NCBI RefSeq assembly: GCF_024502345.1
Contig: NZ_JALDNN010000002.1
Strand: one strand, 5' to 3'
DNA from: Escherichia coli
GTDB taxonomy: Bacteria > Pseudomonadota > Gammaproteobacteria > Enterobacterales > Enterobacteriaceae
Length of the DNA: 64,000 bases
In this document: piece after piece, positions 36,101-42,100 of the stretch
Layout of the letters: each line of letters opens with the position of its first letter
How positions within the stretch are numbered: position 1 is the stretch's first letter
Made by a program: the position numbers

Positions 36101-39100
36101 TCGATGGCCATACTCAACCGTTCACCGGTTATACGAATATCGTCGTAACCCTCCCGCCTTGAGAATTCCAAATCCTTGAGAACAGAGGTCGCATCGATTG
36201 ATGTTCTAGTGCCCTTTGCAGGCCTGCTTGAAGGAACAAAAACATTTAATCTCATCAGGGCTACAGGCTGAACTGTGGCCTTACTTGTGACGGTGAGTTT
36301 ATTGTTAACACTTTCACAATCTGGACCTATAACCTCGCCGATATAAACATTCTCATTCATATAGTTATATCCATTCATAGCATATGATCGATATGTGCCT
36401 AAATATTAACTCTTTCCCGTTTCGACACACCTTTCTTCCCGATTCTACCCACCCTTACCCCGTTTTGACACACCTTTTTCCCGCTTCAGAACACCTTTCT
36501 CCCACTACGACACACCTGAAATCGCTACGAAGCCCGTAAACAAAGGTTTTGCCGCTAAAGGGATCAGTTTGGATCTATTTGGATAACTAAGGGTAAATTA
36601 TTGGATCTACTCAAAGGATATGTGGATAACTCATTATGGAATCTATAGAACTTAAGTGCGTAAGGTGTTTTAAAAGGCTTCAGCTCCCCTGGTGCTTCCT
36701 CGCTCACTCGCGGGCTTCGCCCTGTCGTTCGGCTGCGGCGAGCACTGCTGGCTCTCTCTGAAAGGCAAAATTTAACCGATCCTCGCAACGGGGATATCTC
36801 TCCAGCGAGTGGTGTACGCAGGGGAGAGCATATCGCGTTTCATTTGCCAGGATGGCACAATTCCTCTACCGGCAAACCATACTTTACCCAGCCCTGAGTT
36901 GTTGATCCCGTCCAGAACCCTCATCAGCTCAGCACTGTGAGGGCGTGGCGGGCGTTCGTCGAACAGCTGCAGCTGCGAAACGCCGGAGCCGGTGAAGTCA
37001 TTCAGCATAACTCCGGCTTTGGCATACCTGTGCCCATCCCTCCAGATACGCTCCAGAGCCGTTGTGGCGGCTGCAATGATGTCCCTGGTGTCCTGAGTGG
37101 GTGTAAGAAGTTTTTCCGTAGCCACGTTGCCGTAGTAAGGCTCTTTAACGGCGAACGGAGACGTTTTGATGAAAACGGAAATATGCCGGCAATACTGGTG
37201 CTCTTTACGCAGCTTTTCAGAGGCCCGCTCTGCGTGCTGACAGATAGCCTGACGGAGTGACTCGTACTCCGTGATCTTCACGCCAAAACTGCGGCTGCAG
37301 ACAATTTGCTGTTTCGTCGGAGGGGCTTCCTCAAGCGAAAGGCAGCTTTCCCCGTTCAGTTCCCGTACCGTTCGCTCAAGGACGACAGAAAAATTTTTGC
37401 GGATGAAGGCCGGGTTCGTCAGAGCCAGATCGAGCGCGGTCTTAATGCCCAGTACATTCAGCTTGCGTGCAATACGGTTACCCACCCCCCAGATTTCTTC
37501 AACCGGCTGCAGTGAAAGCAGTTTCCGCGTTCTCTGCGGATTTCCCCTGGTCAGAGCAAGTACGCCACGAAACTGTTTCCACTCTTTTGAGGCCCACTGG
37601 GCTGATTTTGCGAGGGTCTTCGTTGGCCCGGCGCCCACGCCAATGGTAAGGCGGGTACAGTCATACACGTGCTGACGCAGCTGCCGGCCGAAGTCCTCAA
37701 GCTCCATACAGTGCTCCACGCCGGTCAGGTCGAGGAACATCTCATCAATTGAATACTGTTCCACCCTGGGGGCCAGTTCCTCCAGGCTGTTCATCACGCG
37801 CGCCGACATCGAAGCATAAAGTTCATAGTTACTTGAAAACGCATATATTTTTTCCGGGTATCTTTCGTTTTTTATCTGAAACCACGGAGTTCCCATTTTG
37901 ATCCAGCGCTTCGCCTCGGCACTGCGAGCGATTACGTTCCCGTCGTTGTTGCTCAGGACGACTATCGGCTTTCCTTTCAAATCCGGTCGGAAAACACGTT
38001 CACAGCTGGCATAGAAGCTGTTCACATCGGCCAGGGCAAACATCAGTACATCTCCCTCGGGCGGTGGATGATATGCGTGACGACGCCAAAGATATCCAGC
38101 TCATCGGGGTCAGGATAAGTCGGCGACCAGGAGGCATTCATGGGCTGCAGCGTCAGTCGAGGCGTCAGCAGAAGCCGTTTAACCGTAAACTCCCCCTGTA
38201 CGCTGGCGACAACGATATCGCCGTGCCGCGGCTTTTCAGCACTGTCCACAACCAGCAGATCGCCATTGTACAGACTACCGTCCGCCATGCTGTCTCCGCT
38301 GGCACGCAGGTAGTACGTCGCGCTCGGATGCCGTATGCAGTAATCATGGAGATCCAGATCGGACTCGACATAGTCAGCGGCAGGGCTGGGAAAACCGCAG
38401 CTGGCCAGATCGGCAAACAATGGATGAGCCTGTGGCGGGTGTTCTTTCCCGGTGCTGAAAAGCTGTAGCTTCATCTTTCCTCCTGATACTCTAATTTTAC
38501 TGGTTATGCATACAGTGTGCGCCGGGAGACCGGTAGAGATCAAGGGGTGAAAGTCCCCGACCATTGAAGGACCAGCAATCCACAAGGTCCCCGAGTCATG
38601 CGTTGCATACCGCGAGGTATGGGGCGAAGCGTTGACAGGGGTGTTGACAGGCCAGCCATTGAGCCACGAAATGTATATTAAATTACCGGGTGCCGACGTT
38701 GTACTGTTAACGGAAGGCAACATCATAGGGTGCGATACTGCGAGTGCCACATGGACCCGGCGGGGTCTGAGACCCTGGCATGTCAATACGATCTCTACGC
38801 GGGAACCGGGAGATCTCCCCTCTGACCATCTGCCAGTGTCGGAGATGGCCCGCACCGGGAAGACGAGGAGTCATAGCCGGTGATGTACGGAGAGGAGAAG
38901 TCGGACTCGCTCATAGTAGCGGCGAAGCAGGCGAACAACCCGAAAGGAGCGGAGTCAGTGGAGCGAAGGAGCGGGGCCAAGGGGAACGTGGAACAGCCAC
39001 ACATGCGCCGGACACAGAGCCGGGAAAGCATGTCACAGAGGCTGTCACGCGTGCGGGAAGCTGCGAAGCAGCGGAAGAAAGAACGGTTTACAGCATTGTT

Positions 39101-42100
39101 CCACCTGCTGACAGTCGAAGCACTGGAAGCCGCATTCCTCTCCCTGAGCAGGAAAGCGGCCGCCGGAGTGGATGGCATCAGGTGGATGGACTACGCCGGA
39201 AACATGAAGAACAACATAACAGATCTGCACCGGAGGCTACATCAGGGCAGCTACAGGGCGCAGCCCGGCAGGCGTCACTACATCCCAAAAGCGGATGGAA
39301 AACAACGCCCGCTCGGCATCGCCTCGCTGGAGGACAAGATCGTCCAGTATGCGCTGGTGAAAATCCTGAACGCAGTCTATGAAAACGACTTTATGGGGTT
39401 CTCATACGGGTTCAGACCCGGGCGAAGCCAGCACGATGCACTGGACGCACTGGCCACAGGGCTGGTACGCACTAACGTAAACTGGGTACTGGATGCCGAC
39501 ATCAGTCAGTTCTTCGACAGGGTGAGCCACGAATGGCTGATCAGGTTCACAGAGCATCGGATCGGCGACCGGAGCGTAATCAGGCTCATACGTAAGTGGC
39601 TCACAGCCGGGACGTTGGAGGAGGGTCAATGGCGAGCAACGGAGGAAGGCACCCCACAGGGTGCGGTCATCTCACCGCTGCTGGCAAACATATACCTCCA
39701 CTACGTCTTCGATCTGTGGGCGCATCAGTGGCGACGTCGCTATGCCACAGGCAATGTGGTAATGGTCAGATACGCCGATGACATCGTCATCGGGTTCGAC
39801 AAACGATACGATGCCCGGCGCTTCCGTATAGCCATGCAGCGCAGACTGAGGGAGTTCGGACTCACGGTTCACCCGGAGAAAACCCGTCTGATGGAGTTCG
39901 GCCGCTTCGCTGCCGAAAACCGTGCCATCAGGGGAAAAGGCAAACCAGAAACGTTCAACTTCCTCGGGTTCACGCACATCAGCGGGAAAGATCGCAACGG
40001 CAGGTTCATGCTGATACGAAAGACCCGCCGGGATCGGATGACGGCAACTCTGAAAGCCATCAAAGACGGTCTGCGAAGGCGCTGGCATTACTCAATCCCC
40101 GAACAGGGAAAATGGCTCAGGAGAGTGGTTCAGGGATACCTGAACTATCACTCGGTACCGGGCAACTTCCCCACCATGCAGAAGTTCAGGACACACGTAA
40201 CAAACCTCTGGCGCCGGGCGCTCAGGCGCAGGAGCCAGAAGGATGATACGACCTGGACGAAAGCAAACAAACTGGCAGCCGCATGGCTACCAAGGGTTCG
40301 GGTTCTTCATCCATGGCCTGTGGAGCGGTTCACCGCCAGACACCCGAGGCAGGAGCCCGGTGCGTAAATCGCGCACGCCGGGATCTGTGCGGGGGGTATC
40401 CGGTAACGGGTATCCCTACCGCGACATATTTAACAGCGTGACGATAATCCAGATCGCCTGCCGGATAATGGTGCCAACTTACTGATTTAGTGTACGATGG
40501 TGTCTTTGAGGTGCTCCAGTGGCTTCCATCTCCATCAGTTGTCCCTCCTGCTCAGCTACTGAAGGCGTGGTGCGTAACGGTAAAAGTACTGCCGGACATC
40601 AGCGCTATCTCTGCTCTCACTGCCGTAAAACATGGCAGCTACAGTTCACTTACACCGCCTCTCAGCCCGGTACGCACCAGAAAATCATTGATATGGCCAT
40701 GAATGGCGTTGGATGCCGGGCAACCGCCCGCATTATGGGCGTTGGCCTCAACACGATTTTACGTCACTTAAAAAACTCAGGCCGCAGTCGGTAACCTCAC
40801 GCATACAACCGGGCAGTGACGTCATTGTCTGCGCGGAAATGGACGAACAGTGGGGCTACGTCGGGGCTAAATCACGTCAGCGCTGGTTATTTTACGCCTA
40901 TGGCAGGATGTGCAGGACGGTGGTGGCACGCGTCTTTGGTGAGCGTACTCTGGCCACGCTGGAGCGTCTTCCGGGCCTGCTGTCGGCCTTTGAGGTCGTG
41001 GTATGGATGACGGATGGCTGGCCGCTTTATGAATCCCGCCTGAAGGGAGAACTGCACGTTATCAGCAAGCGATATACGCAGCGAATTGAGCGGCATAACC
41101 AGAATCTGAGGCAGCATCTGGCAAGGCTGGGCAGGAAGTCACTGTCGTTCTCAAAATCGGTGGCGCTGCATGACAAAGTCATCGGGCATTATCTGAACAT
41201 AAAACACTATCAGTAAGTTGGAGTCATTACCAACCAGTTCACCACCTACTCGCTCCGCGATTGTGGCAGTCTTCGAAATCCCCGGACGATCCGCCTTTAT
41301 GAAAGTCTTGCTCAATTCAAATCTTCAGGCTTATGGGTTACTACTCATGCTTGGTTAAATGACCGTTTCGTCTTACCGGAATCCCAGCAGAAGAACTTGG
41401 CAGAGTTGAAACGATCTTTCCTTGATCCTGCACTCAAGCAGATAAATGAGAAAACACCTTTACTTGCTAAGTATAGTATTGATGATTCAGGAAAATTTCT
41501 GTTCTCAATAATTGATAAGCAAAATCCCGTCTGACATAAATCAGCACACATGAGCCTGTCATTTGACAAATTTTTGTCATGAAGATGGGCGGATTTCCAC
41601 ACAGCACCGGCGCCCGGTAAGGTGGGCGGATTCCCACACGGCACCGGCGCCCGGTAAGGTGGGCGGATTCCCACACGGCACCGGCGCCCGGTAAGGTGGG
41701 CGGATTCCCACACGGCACCGGCGCCCGGCAAGATGGGCGGATTTCCACACAGCACCGGCGCCCGGTAAGGTGGGCGGATTCCCACACGGCACCGGCGCCC
41801 GGTAAGGTGGGCGGATTCCCACACGGCACCGGCGCCCCGCAAGATGGGCGGATTTCCACACAGCACCGGCGCCCGGTAAGGTGGGCGGATTTCCACACAG
41901 CACCGGCGCGCGGCAAGGTGGGCGGATTTCCACACGGCACCGGCGCCCGGCAAGGTGGGCGGATTTCCACACAGCACCGGCGCCCGGCAAGGTGGGCGGA
42001 TTCCCACACGGCACCGGCGCGCGGCAAGGTGGGCGGATTCCCACACGGCACCGGCGCCCGGCAAGGCGGGCCGATTCCCATATCGACATGTATGTAGCTT

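Follow-up and report, generated by a model that had tools for sequence, protein, structure and literature searches.

The group II intron Kl.pn.I5 in the predicted LexA operator of a plasmid umuDC operon and at LexA boxes of other replicons

We analysed a stretch of 64,000 nucleotides from Escherichia coli (contig NZ_JALDNN010000002.1 of assembly GCF_024502345.1; hereafter the window), which carries a complete group II intron, Kl.pn.I5 (=Se.ma.I1), on the plus strand at 38517-40425. The intron is 1,909 nt long, with 5' GUGCG and 3' ...GAC ends. To its left, two genes are encoded on the minus strand: a umuC-like Y-family polymerase gene (36772-38043), with Pfam IMS, IMS_C and DUF4113 domains and a Y-family annotation in matching plasmids, and a umuD-like gene (38043-38474), with a Peptidase_S24 match (E 7e-25) and annotated as umuD in two of the loci used for comparison (L001 and L002; L-numbers denote these loci throughout). 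Between umuD and the intron lies the predicted LexA (SOS) operator of umuDC, TACTGGTTATGCATACAGT followed by G (38498-38517), recognised from its sequence and from the empty site. To the right, a 37-bp remnant of the 3' exon, which belongs to the IncR backbone (40426-40462, plus strand), is followed by an IS1-family element of 768 bp (40464-41231, plus strand), resembling IS1X3, the transposase annotated in L001 and L002.

The first 19 of the 20 operator bases form the end of the 5' exon; base 20, an A in the empty site, has moved to 40426, and the first G of the intron stands in its place. The rebuilt empty site, TACTGGTTATGCATACAGTA, is a CTG-N10-CAG palindrome with an AT-rich spacer, located 24-43 nt upstream of umuD. 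The LexA box consensus of Gamma- and Betaproteobacteria, TACTGTATATATATACAGTA, is likewise CTG-N10-CAG with an AT-rich spacer, and we take the empty site to fit it. The insertion point falls between box positions 19 and 20 (TACTG-N10-CAGT^A; the caret marks the insertion point throughout), 42 nt upstream of the umuD start codon, and the intron is antisense to umuD. The first-pass annotation had placed the intron just downstream of umuD and suggested a terminator-like site or another mobile element as its target. With umuD on the minus strand, the intron is instead upstream of the start codon, and its target, as read from the DNA, is the LexA/SOS operator of umuDC. Besides this operator, no further ACTG-N10-CAGT box with an AT spacer was found in the window.

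The insertion leaves the box joined to umuD and separates it by 1.9 kb from the sequence formerly upstream of it on the umuD sense strand. A promoter scan of the empty site returned nothing, and the filled site gave one weak antisense match inside the intron. This match, a sigma-70-like GTGGCA-17-TATGAT (9/12; 38750-38722, minus strand), is directed at the retained LexA box and umuD and is the sole one near the junction. The match may have arisen by chance or may act as a promoter directed outward, like those of the class C introns of attC sites (IIC-attC).

The intron limits were set to the base by the empty IncR site, ...CATACAGT^ATATTTAACAG..., of a Serratia IncR-hybrid plasmid (L003), whose uninterrupted umuD flank, ...TTTTACTGGTTATGCATACAGT^ATATTTAACAGCG..., places the intron at 38517-40425. 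The same empty site is present in E. coli IncR plasmids (H143-146), and the limits were also confirmed by more than 40 other insertion sites. Furthermore, the length of 1,909 nt was repeated in 43 further copies among the loci, in which 1,910-nt variants were found too. The ends defined by the empty site (GUGCG at 38517-38521 and ...GAC at 40423-40425) have the GUGYG/AY form. Thus the GTGCG start and the start coordinate 38517 given in the first-pass annotation were exact, and its end, 40455, has to be moved 30 nt back to 40425.

Over its full 1,909 nt, the intron of the window shares 99.79% identity with that of CP006658, a ColE1-type plasmid whose intron is listed as "Se.ma.I1 (also called Kl.pn.I5)" (PMC6764390). 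The reference copy of Kl.pn.I5 is located in the IncR prototype pK245 (PMC3522654). Under the rule that less than 10% nucleotide divergence from a named reference defines the same intron (as in PMC3522654), applied here to the CP006658 copy, the window element is assigned to the catalogued intron Kl.pn.I5/Se.ma.I1 and to "retA" of IncR plasmids; it is the same element as the Kl.pn.I5/Se.ma.I1 entry of the Zimmerly group II intron database. Its open reading frame (ORF) is annotated as ltrA by NCBI and has been named retA and classed as an IncR backbone "maintenance" gene (PMC7707992). Compared with the consensus of 29 close copies, the window copy shows three differences, all missense changes in the reverse transcriptase (RT; A37V, R232S and S246L), leaving the ribozyme unaffected. 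The window copy is therefore full-length and apparently intact in both ORF and ribozyme, and no second intron copy was found within the window.

The ribozyme core, comprising domains I-IV, was identified by cmscan at 38550-38775 (plus strand) as a full-length match to Rfam RF02005 (group-II-D1D4-6; model 1-225 of 225), with 186.6 bits against a gathering score of 49 and an E value of 1e-54. A fold made on the last 86 nt of the intron revealed the two 3' domains on the same strand. Domain V (40353-40385) is a 33-nt hairpin with an AGC triad at 40354-40356 and an AC bulge. It is atypical in that G.A replaces the usual G.U and in its 5-nt non-GNRA loop, which contains the ORF stop codon, and these features are conserved across the clade. 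Domain VI (40389-40422) ends in a GUAA loop, and its branch-point A is bulged out at 40418, 7 nt before the 3' splice site. In an alignment of 25 relatives, the 12 pairs of domain V were 100% paired, 5 of them with compensatory changes, and 7 of the 14 pairs of domain VI showed compensatory change. For both domains combined, 99.4% of cells were paired and 12 of 26 pairs showed compensation; when the structure was slid by 1-3 columns as a control, only 38-46% of cells were paired.

Domain IV contains the ORF of a 495-aa intron-encoded RT/maturase (38880-40367, plus strand; RVT_1 E 9e-47), with a YADD motif at 39771-39782 (plus strand; aa 298). With 375 bits (aa 81-451), the protein exceeds the cut-off of 300 for TIGR04416, the equivalog of group II RT/maturases, and its nearest solved relatives are group II intron RTs. 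An endonuclease (HNH/En) domain is absent: Pfam gives RVT_1 only, and the protein stops 44 aa past the TIGR04416 match. The 80 residues before that match (38880-39119) are conserved at the protein level even in actinobacterial relatives with 54% identity (EKSD..V.AK..NN...VE.R..AKGN), so this N-terminal extension is real coding sequence. In some relatives, the ORF continues through domain V into the domain VI loop. With domains V and VI present and TIGR04416 passed, the first-pass call of an ORF-containing group II intron with a YADD-type RT/maturase stands. The fold and exon pairing that it proposed to check are both there, as complementarity between exon-binding site 1 (EBS1) and intron-binding site 1 (IBS1) was also found.

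To define the target, copies were pooled from all loci and from an IMG/VR scan for the first 17 nt of the intron (98 stretches), in which the flank was not used. The sample comprised 85 copies whose first 300 nt share 85% identity or more with Kl.pn.I5, representing 41 distinct sites. CTG-N10-CAG was present exactly at -17..-2 in 36 of the 41 sites, where its chance at a fixed position is 2.4e-4, and 2 further sites had one mismatch in CTG/CAG. The other three comprised one box with its left half replaced by ISCfr12, one ectopic insertion within a BCCT transporter gene, and one tandem insertion with the second copy abutting the first. The position matrix of 40 sites, T-A-C-T-G-T-A-T-A-T-A-W-A-W-A-C-A-G-T^R-T, reproduces the LexA consensus. 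Since the spacers and outer flanks vary among sites, the box is the target and not cargo. Copies more than 99% identical occur at dozens of unrelated loci, nearly all of them LexA boxes, with the same insertion position. Matches to the 17-mer outside boxes had a different EBS1 hairpin and belonged to other introns.

Two of the exceptional sites deserve description. In a Raoultella plasmid (L011, 1205-2505), the ISL3-family element ISCfr12 abuts the spacer of the intron-holding umuD SOS box, the left half-site being gone, so a second element used the same AT-rich palindrome. The ectopic copy, in an E. coli plasmid (L017, 1514-3422), lies in a BCCT/choline transporter gene at ...GTATATGGATATCAGT^AAAA, with no LexA box and an imperfect IBS1 (TCAGT).

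The first nine independent contexts agree in carrying the box with the intron at the same position. Contexts include umuD on IncR, IncFIB/FII and IncFIB/HI1B plasmids (the last in sense orientation), a mucA-like gene on IncL/M, the cloacin gene on ColE1-type plasmids, and two diverged tyrosine-recombinase genes; prophages are also among the insertion sites. In E. coli chromosomes, the intron was found in the canonical umuDC operator, ...TACTGTATATAAAAACAGT^ATAACTTCAGG, and 5,323 of 5,426 genomes carry the rebuilt junction as the unbroken sequence upstream of umuDC. Both orientations relative to the box were observed, as its palindromic nature allows. In sense insertions, the intron lies after the full box and downstream of an SOS-regulated promoter. 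In the sense insertion of the cloacin plasmid, a TTGACA hexamer, which we read as the cloacin promoter, lies 50 nt upstream of the junction. LexA would be expected to control transcription of the intron there, with the 5' exon intact.

Tandem arrays were also identified. An IMG/VR prophage contig (L113, 6088-13723) carries four head-to-tail copies at a spacing of exactly 1,909 nt with one SOS box ahead, and the K. oxytoca plasmid pKOR-e6bf (L004) carries two, a 92%-identical variant ahead of a 99.8% copy. At the 5' junction, CTG-N10-CAGT is retained and followed by the intron GT, which agrees with the preference for R at +1 and T at +2. An occupied site is therefore still target-like, which explains the head-to-tail arrays.

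The intron RNA contains sequences complementary to the box. According to the Rfam structure line, the EBS1 hairpin lies at 38697-38712 (plus strand) with the loop GUACUGUU at 38701-38708. Its ACUGU is complementary to ACAGU at -5..-1, which places IBS1 (ACAGT) at 38511/38512-38516 on the plus strand. The U preceding EBS1 faces position +1, which is A in 29 sites, G in 4 and never a pyrimidine. A candidate EBS2, UGUAUAU (38672-38678, plus strand), pairs with -13..-7 (ATATAYA), corresponding to a tentative IBS2 at 38504-38510 (plus strand); both intron-binding sites were placed with the matrix of 40 sites and by complementarity to the EBS loops. The pairings suggest that the RNA reads the right half-site and the spacer of the box.

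Furthermore, the EBS1 loop covaries with the target in five families. Kl.pn.I5 combines EBS1 GU-ACUGUU with the target (A or T)ACAGT and R at +1. Among the Ralstonia families, P0020 (73% RT identity) has CU-ACUGUA and TACAGT with A at +1, and P0046 (69% RT identity) has GU-UACUG-G and ACAGTA with T at +1, its loop register and insertion site both being displaced by 1 nt. A member of the clade from Acidobacteriaceae shows GUUUCC with GGAGAC and T at +1, and an actinobacterial family shows UGUGAA with TTCGCA. The EBS2 of P0020, UGUUUAU, pairs with the sites ATAAATA and ATGGATA via U.G wobbles. A delta-delta' pairing was considered as a general rule for +1 and rejected: it fits Kl.pn.I5 and P0020 (U facing A or G) and fails for P0046 (U facing T). 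The +1 contact may be an EBS3 that lies at another position.

Relatives of Kl.pn.I5 also occupy LexA boxes. In Ralstonia solanacearum, introns were found at CTG-N10-CAG sites beside a UvrD-helicase gene, a two-gene unit ending in an IMS-family gene (with a weak Pfam IMS match), a SRAP-domain gene, a phage integrase gene and a DUF6566 gene; two further Ralstonia copies were ectopic. We infer that the two-gene unit is imuA-imuB. A degenerate relative in the Klebsiella chromosome (5' GTTCG, 1,719 nt) is inserted in the box upstream of a GyrI-like gene with a PBP5-type gene adjoining, which is the sbmC-dacD arrangement. In a neighbour-joining RT tree (487 columns, 200 bootstraps), Kl.pn.I5 and the Ralstonia families formed one clade with 93% support, which includes the Acidobacteriaceae intron with its other target. 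The target is retained by three proteobacterial subfamilies through about 30% RT divergence. The relatives at 62-68% RT identity, from Acidobacteriaceae, Variovorax (65%) and Thiobacillus (62%), were located outside LexA boxes.

A second family was identified in Actinobacteria. Two relatives with RTs about 54% identical and the 5' end GAGCGCCCGGATAAACCG were located directly after ...GAACATATGTTCGCA^. Scanning metagenomes for the actinobacterial 5' 18-mer yielded 67 stretches, about 20 of which represent the actinobacterial intron as judged by the next 60 nt. All of these roughly 20 copies stand directly after CGAAC-N4-GTTC(G or C)CA^, with at least 13 different flanks. GAAC-N4-GTTC corresponds to the LexA (Cheo) box of the Gram-positive/actinobacterial type. 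Start codons on the opposite strand follow these boxes at a distance of 2-6 nt, and the genes concerned are a Y-family polymerase (IMS E 4e-36), an Rv2578c-family radical SAM protein (313 bits, partial sequence), a PD-(D/E)XK nuclease and a small conserved protein. The 5' boundary in this family was set by GAGCG/GUGCG homology and EBS1 pairing, without an empty site. In the tree, the family groups with L056 (71%), apart from the proteobacterial clade, deep nodes having less than 50% support. A search of viral contigs for the actinobacterial 5' pattern gave a single chance match and no intron.

Taken together, the window very probably holds an intact-looking mobile copy of Kl.pn.I5 that retrohomed into the umuDC LexA operator in antisense orientation, with IS1 arriving later and independently. 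In the mechanism we propose, the spliced intron RNA, bound to its own RT, would recognise DNA by base pairing: the EBS1 loop ACUGU would pair with ACAGT of the right half-site, the AU-rich EBS2 UGUAUAU with the TA-rich spacer, and the U beside EBS1 would face the +1 purine. The RNA would then reverse-splice after CAGT. Because the RT has no En domain, cDNA synthesis is presumed to be primed at the replication fork, as in other En-less introns, and a palindromic target would offer a usable strand for either fork direction.

Several observations weigh against this account. The intron is antisense to umuDC, and the consensus scan identified no promoter for it. Priming at the fork is deduced from the missing En domain. 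The Rfam model for domains V and VI, RF00029, gave no match even at E<=10; the miss is explained by the clade-wide atypical domain V, with its G.A and non-GNRA loop, and the 3' end was therefore tested directly by fold and covariation. EBS2 rests on two families, and P0046 has no convincing pairing in any register. The RT of the window copy carries the three non-consensus missense changes, and the case for its splicing and mobility is comparative only: filled and empty sites correspond exactly, and 41 sites hold copies that are nearly identical. Finally, the left CTG is present in 7 of the 9 unoccupied matches to the RNA-paired part in 1.77 Mb of scanned DNA; this half-site may be recognised by the intron, perhaps through its protein, or may simply accompany the sequence.

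This last observation bears on how the link to LexA boxes should be understood. It may be a neutral by-product of pairing with a 14-15-nt AT-rich half box and spacer, in which neither LexA, SOS function nor selection has a part. RNA pairing over -13..+1 is enough to specify a site, ectopic insertions lack the left half-site (L017, L032, L034), and the RNA-paired motif is nearly synonymous with LexA boxes in the scanned DNA. However, the second family, with another EBS1 (UGUGAA), occupies at least 13 distinct CGAAC-N4-GTTCGCA^ boxes of the Gram-positive LexA type, which adjoin genes for a Y-family polymerase, an Rv2578c-family radical SAM protein and a PD-(D/E)XK nuclease. Two arrivals at operators of the same repressor through unrelated sequences are hard to ascribe to chance, and the persistence of the target in the three proteobacterial subfamilies also speaks against a by-product. 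We therefore regard the neutral explanation as possible but somewhat doubtful. We tentatively propose, as a plausible reading, that selection has made homing into LexA operators a defining strategy of these introns and that the match is not a coincidence of sequence. The trait is present in the proteobacterial clade (CTG-N10-CAG) and in the separate actinobacterial family (GAAC-N4-GTTC), and it may have arisen twice. If both families hold up, the target would be selected for its nature and not for its reading.

The distribution of Kl.pn.I5 bears on whether the intron is mobile at all. Its sequence was found in 4,757 plasmid records, 4,148 of them from Klebsiella. Among 5,426 complete E. coli genomes, 248 contain it, with 45 of the places being chromosomal. 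Identity is 99% or higher in about 3,500 records, many at the same IncR site, and retA is listed as an IncR backbone/maintenance gene (PMC7707992), as would be expected of an immobile relic inherited vertically with IncR plasmids. This explanation is improbable given that the 1,909-nt unit occupies 41 distinct sites, which extend to prophages, chromosomes and plasmids of other types, and that exact empty sites are known. Moreover, ORF and ribozyme are intact, tandem arrays exist, and both retA and vagCD are missing from about 7% of IncR plasmids (PMC7707992). Sequences 99% identical to Kl.pn.I5 were also detected in unrelated phyla, in an Arthrobacter mobilis scaffold (L039) and a 381-bp Myxococcus contig (L071), and are most likely contamination by enterobacterial plasmid DNA. 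In the former, a tyrosine-recombinase-site 5' flank is combined with a cloacin-like 3' flank, as though two copies had recombined.

The proximity of IS1 had led the first-pass annotation to suggest that one element targeted the other, the gap being given as about 10 bp. The gap is in fact 38 bp, and intron and IS1 lie this close in the window and in many IncR records. The 3' exon remnant is the same as in L003 up to ...CGCCTGCC, after which L003 runs toward parM, and IS1 evidently replaced the parM side of the backbone, without target duplication (flanks CGCCTGCCG vs AACCAGTTC) and separately from the intron system. The IncR site is known in three states: empty (umuD-parM, L003), with the intron only (umuD-intron-parM, L238), and with intron and IS1 (the window, L001 and L002). 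IS1 therefore arrived later and independently. Intron copies elsewhere have no nearby IS1, and mutual targeting, ruled out by the three-state comparison, is highly improbable. An origin of the RT in a retron, a diversity-generating retroelement or a defence system, which the first-pass annotation had named together with a missing domain V/VI as grounds for rejecting the intron, can be dismissed almost with certainty, as the partial matches to the Drt2, Drt3a and retron RT models are weak and far under their cut-offs (Drt2 61 vs 390, retron St85 56 vs 235, Ec67 21 vs 450), whereas TIGR04416 is passed and the ORF is enclosed by a ribozyme whose core matches RF02005 and whose domains V and VI show covariation.

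Other features of the window were also recorded. Just right of IS1, 13.5 tandem copies of the 37-bp unit AAGGTGGGCGGATTCCCACACGGCACCGGCGCCCGGC (93% matches) occupy 41582-42080 and produce long repetitive ORFs in all frames. An ORF at 42181-42660 (minus strand) has the N-terminus MNVKTIGIDLAKNVFQIHG..., which by eye resembles an IS110-family transposase fragment. Adjoining umuC, a Rep3-type replication initiator gene (Pfam Rep3_N) was located at 35485-36378 (minus strand); in classic IncR plasmids (L002), repB-parAB is beside umuC in the opposite orientation. The window appears as a mosaic, with its best match in the rep_cluster_1418 Klebsiella plasmid NZ_CP073793. In addition, ACTGCGCTGAATCGCAGT and its exact reverse complement are present at 46652-46669 and 52176-52193, 5.5 kb apart. 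The pair has a GC-rich spacer and is thus not a LexA box; it may represent the ends of an inverted-repeat element.

The element itself is known, and the rule of homing to LexA boxes appears to be new. Leclercq and Cordaux (2012; PMC3522654) derived a consensus homing site from three copies and called the sites "intergenic", with no mention of LexA or umuD. In open-access papers and bioRxiv, no literature linking group II introns with LexA boxes was found. Class C (IIC) and IIC-attC introns are similar to Kl.pn.I5 in being En-less and homing to a recurring non-coding palindromic motif (terminators, attC) and not to one gene, and hence in reaching a large number of unrelated loci. The triad of IIC introns is CGC, whereas domain V of Kl.pn.I5 has AGC, and the target of Kl.pn.I5 is a repressor operator and not a terminator or recombination site. 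IIC introns recognise a DNA stem-loop with short IBS1/IBS3 and no EBS2 (PMC3522654). Unlike them, Kl.pn.I5 has an EBS1 loop and a candidate EBS2 that pair with the box itself. RmInt1 of Sinorhizobium meliloti resembles Kl.pn.I5 in its RT/maturase without endonuclease and in its recognition of the target by EBS/IBS pairing. It homes into ISRm2011-2, with priming at replication forks; its natural target is thus one insertion sequence, in contrast to a regulatory site on many replicons for Kl.pn.I5.

Integron integrases and ISCR transposases (PMC13393415) belong to SOS-regulated mobile elements. Like Kl.pn.I5, such elements tie LexA control to a mobile element, but they carry the LexA box in their own promoter, whereas Kl.pn.I5 enters the boxes of other genes and gains a box at its 5' junction. 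We know of no described retroelement that naturally homes to a global repressor's operator. Besides terminators and attC sites, LexA operators would give bacterial group II introns a third target of the "generic motif" kind.

LexA boxes are conserved across hosts and lie upstream of genes common on plasmids, phages and colicin plasmids. Being so widespread, they would account for the reach of the intron across its 4,757 plasmid records, prophages and chromosomes. The annotation of "retA" is corrected: it is not an IncR maintenance gene. If the target is selected, it would offer the intron a conserved, non-coding, orientation-symmetric site on every replicon with SOS genes. Sense insertions under an SOS promoter would then raise intron expression and spread with DNA damage. 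The finding raises the questions of whether intron mobility is SOS-inducible and whether bound LexA protects the site. For the host, the operator or promoter of error-prone polymerase operons may be split on thousands of resistance plasmids, and whether plasmid umuDC is silenced or rewired by the insertion matters because an error-prone polymerase bears on mutation supply in multidrug-resistant Klebsiella.

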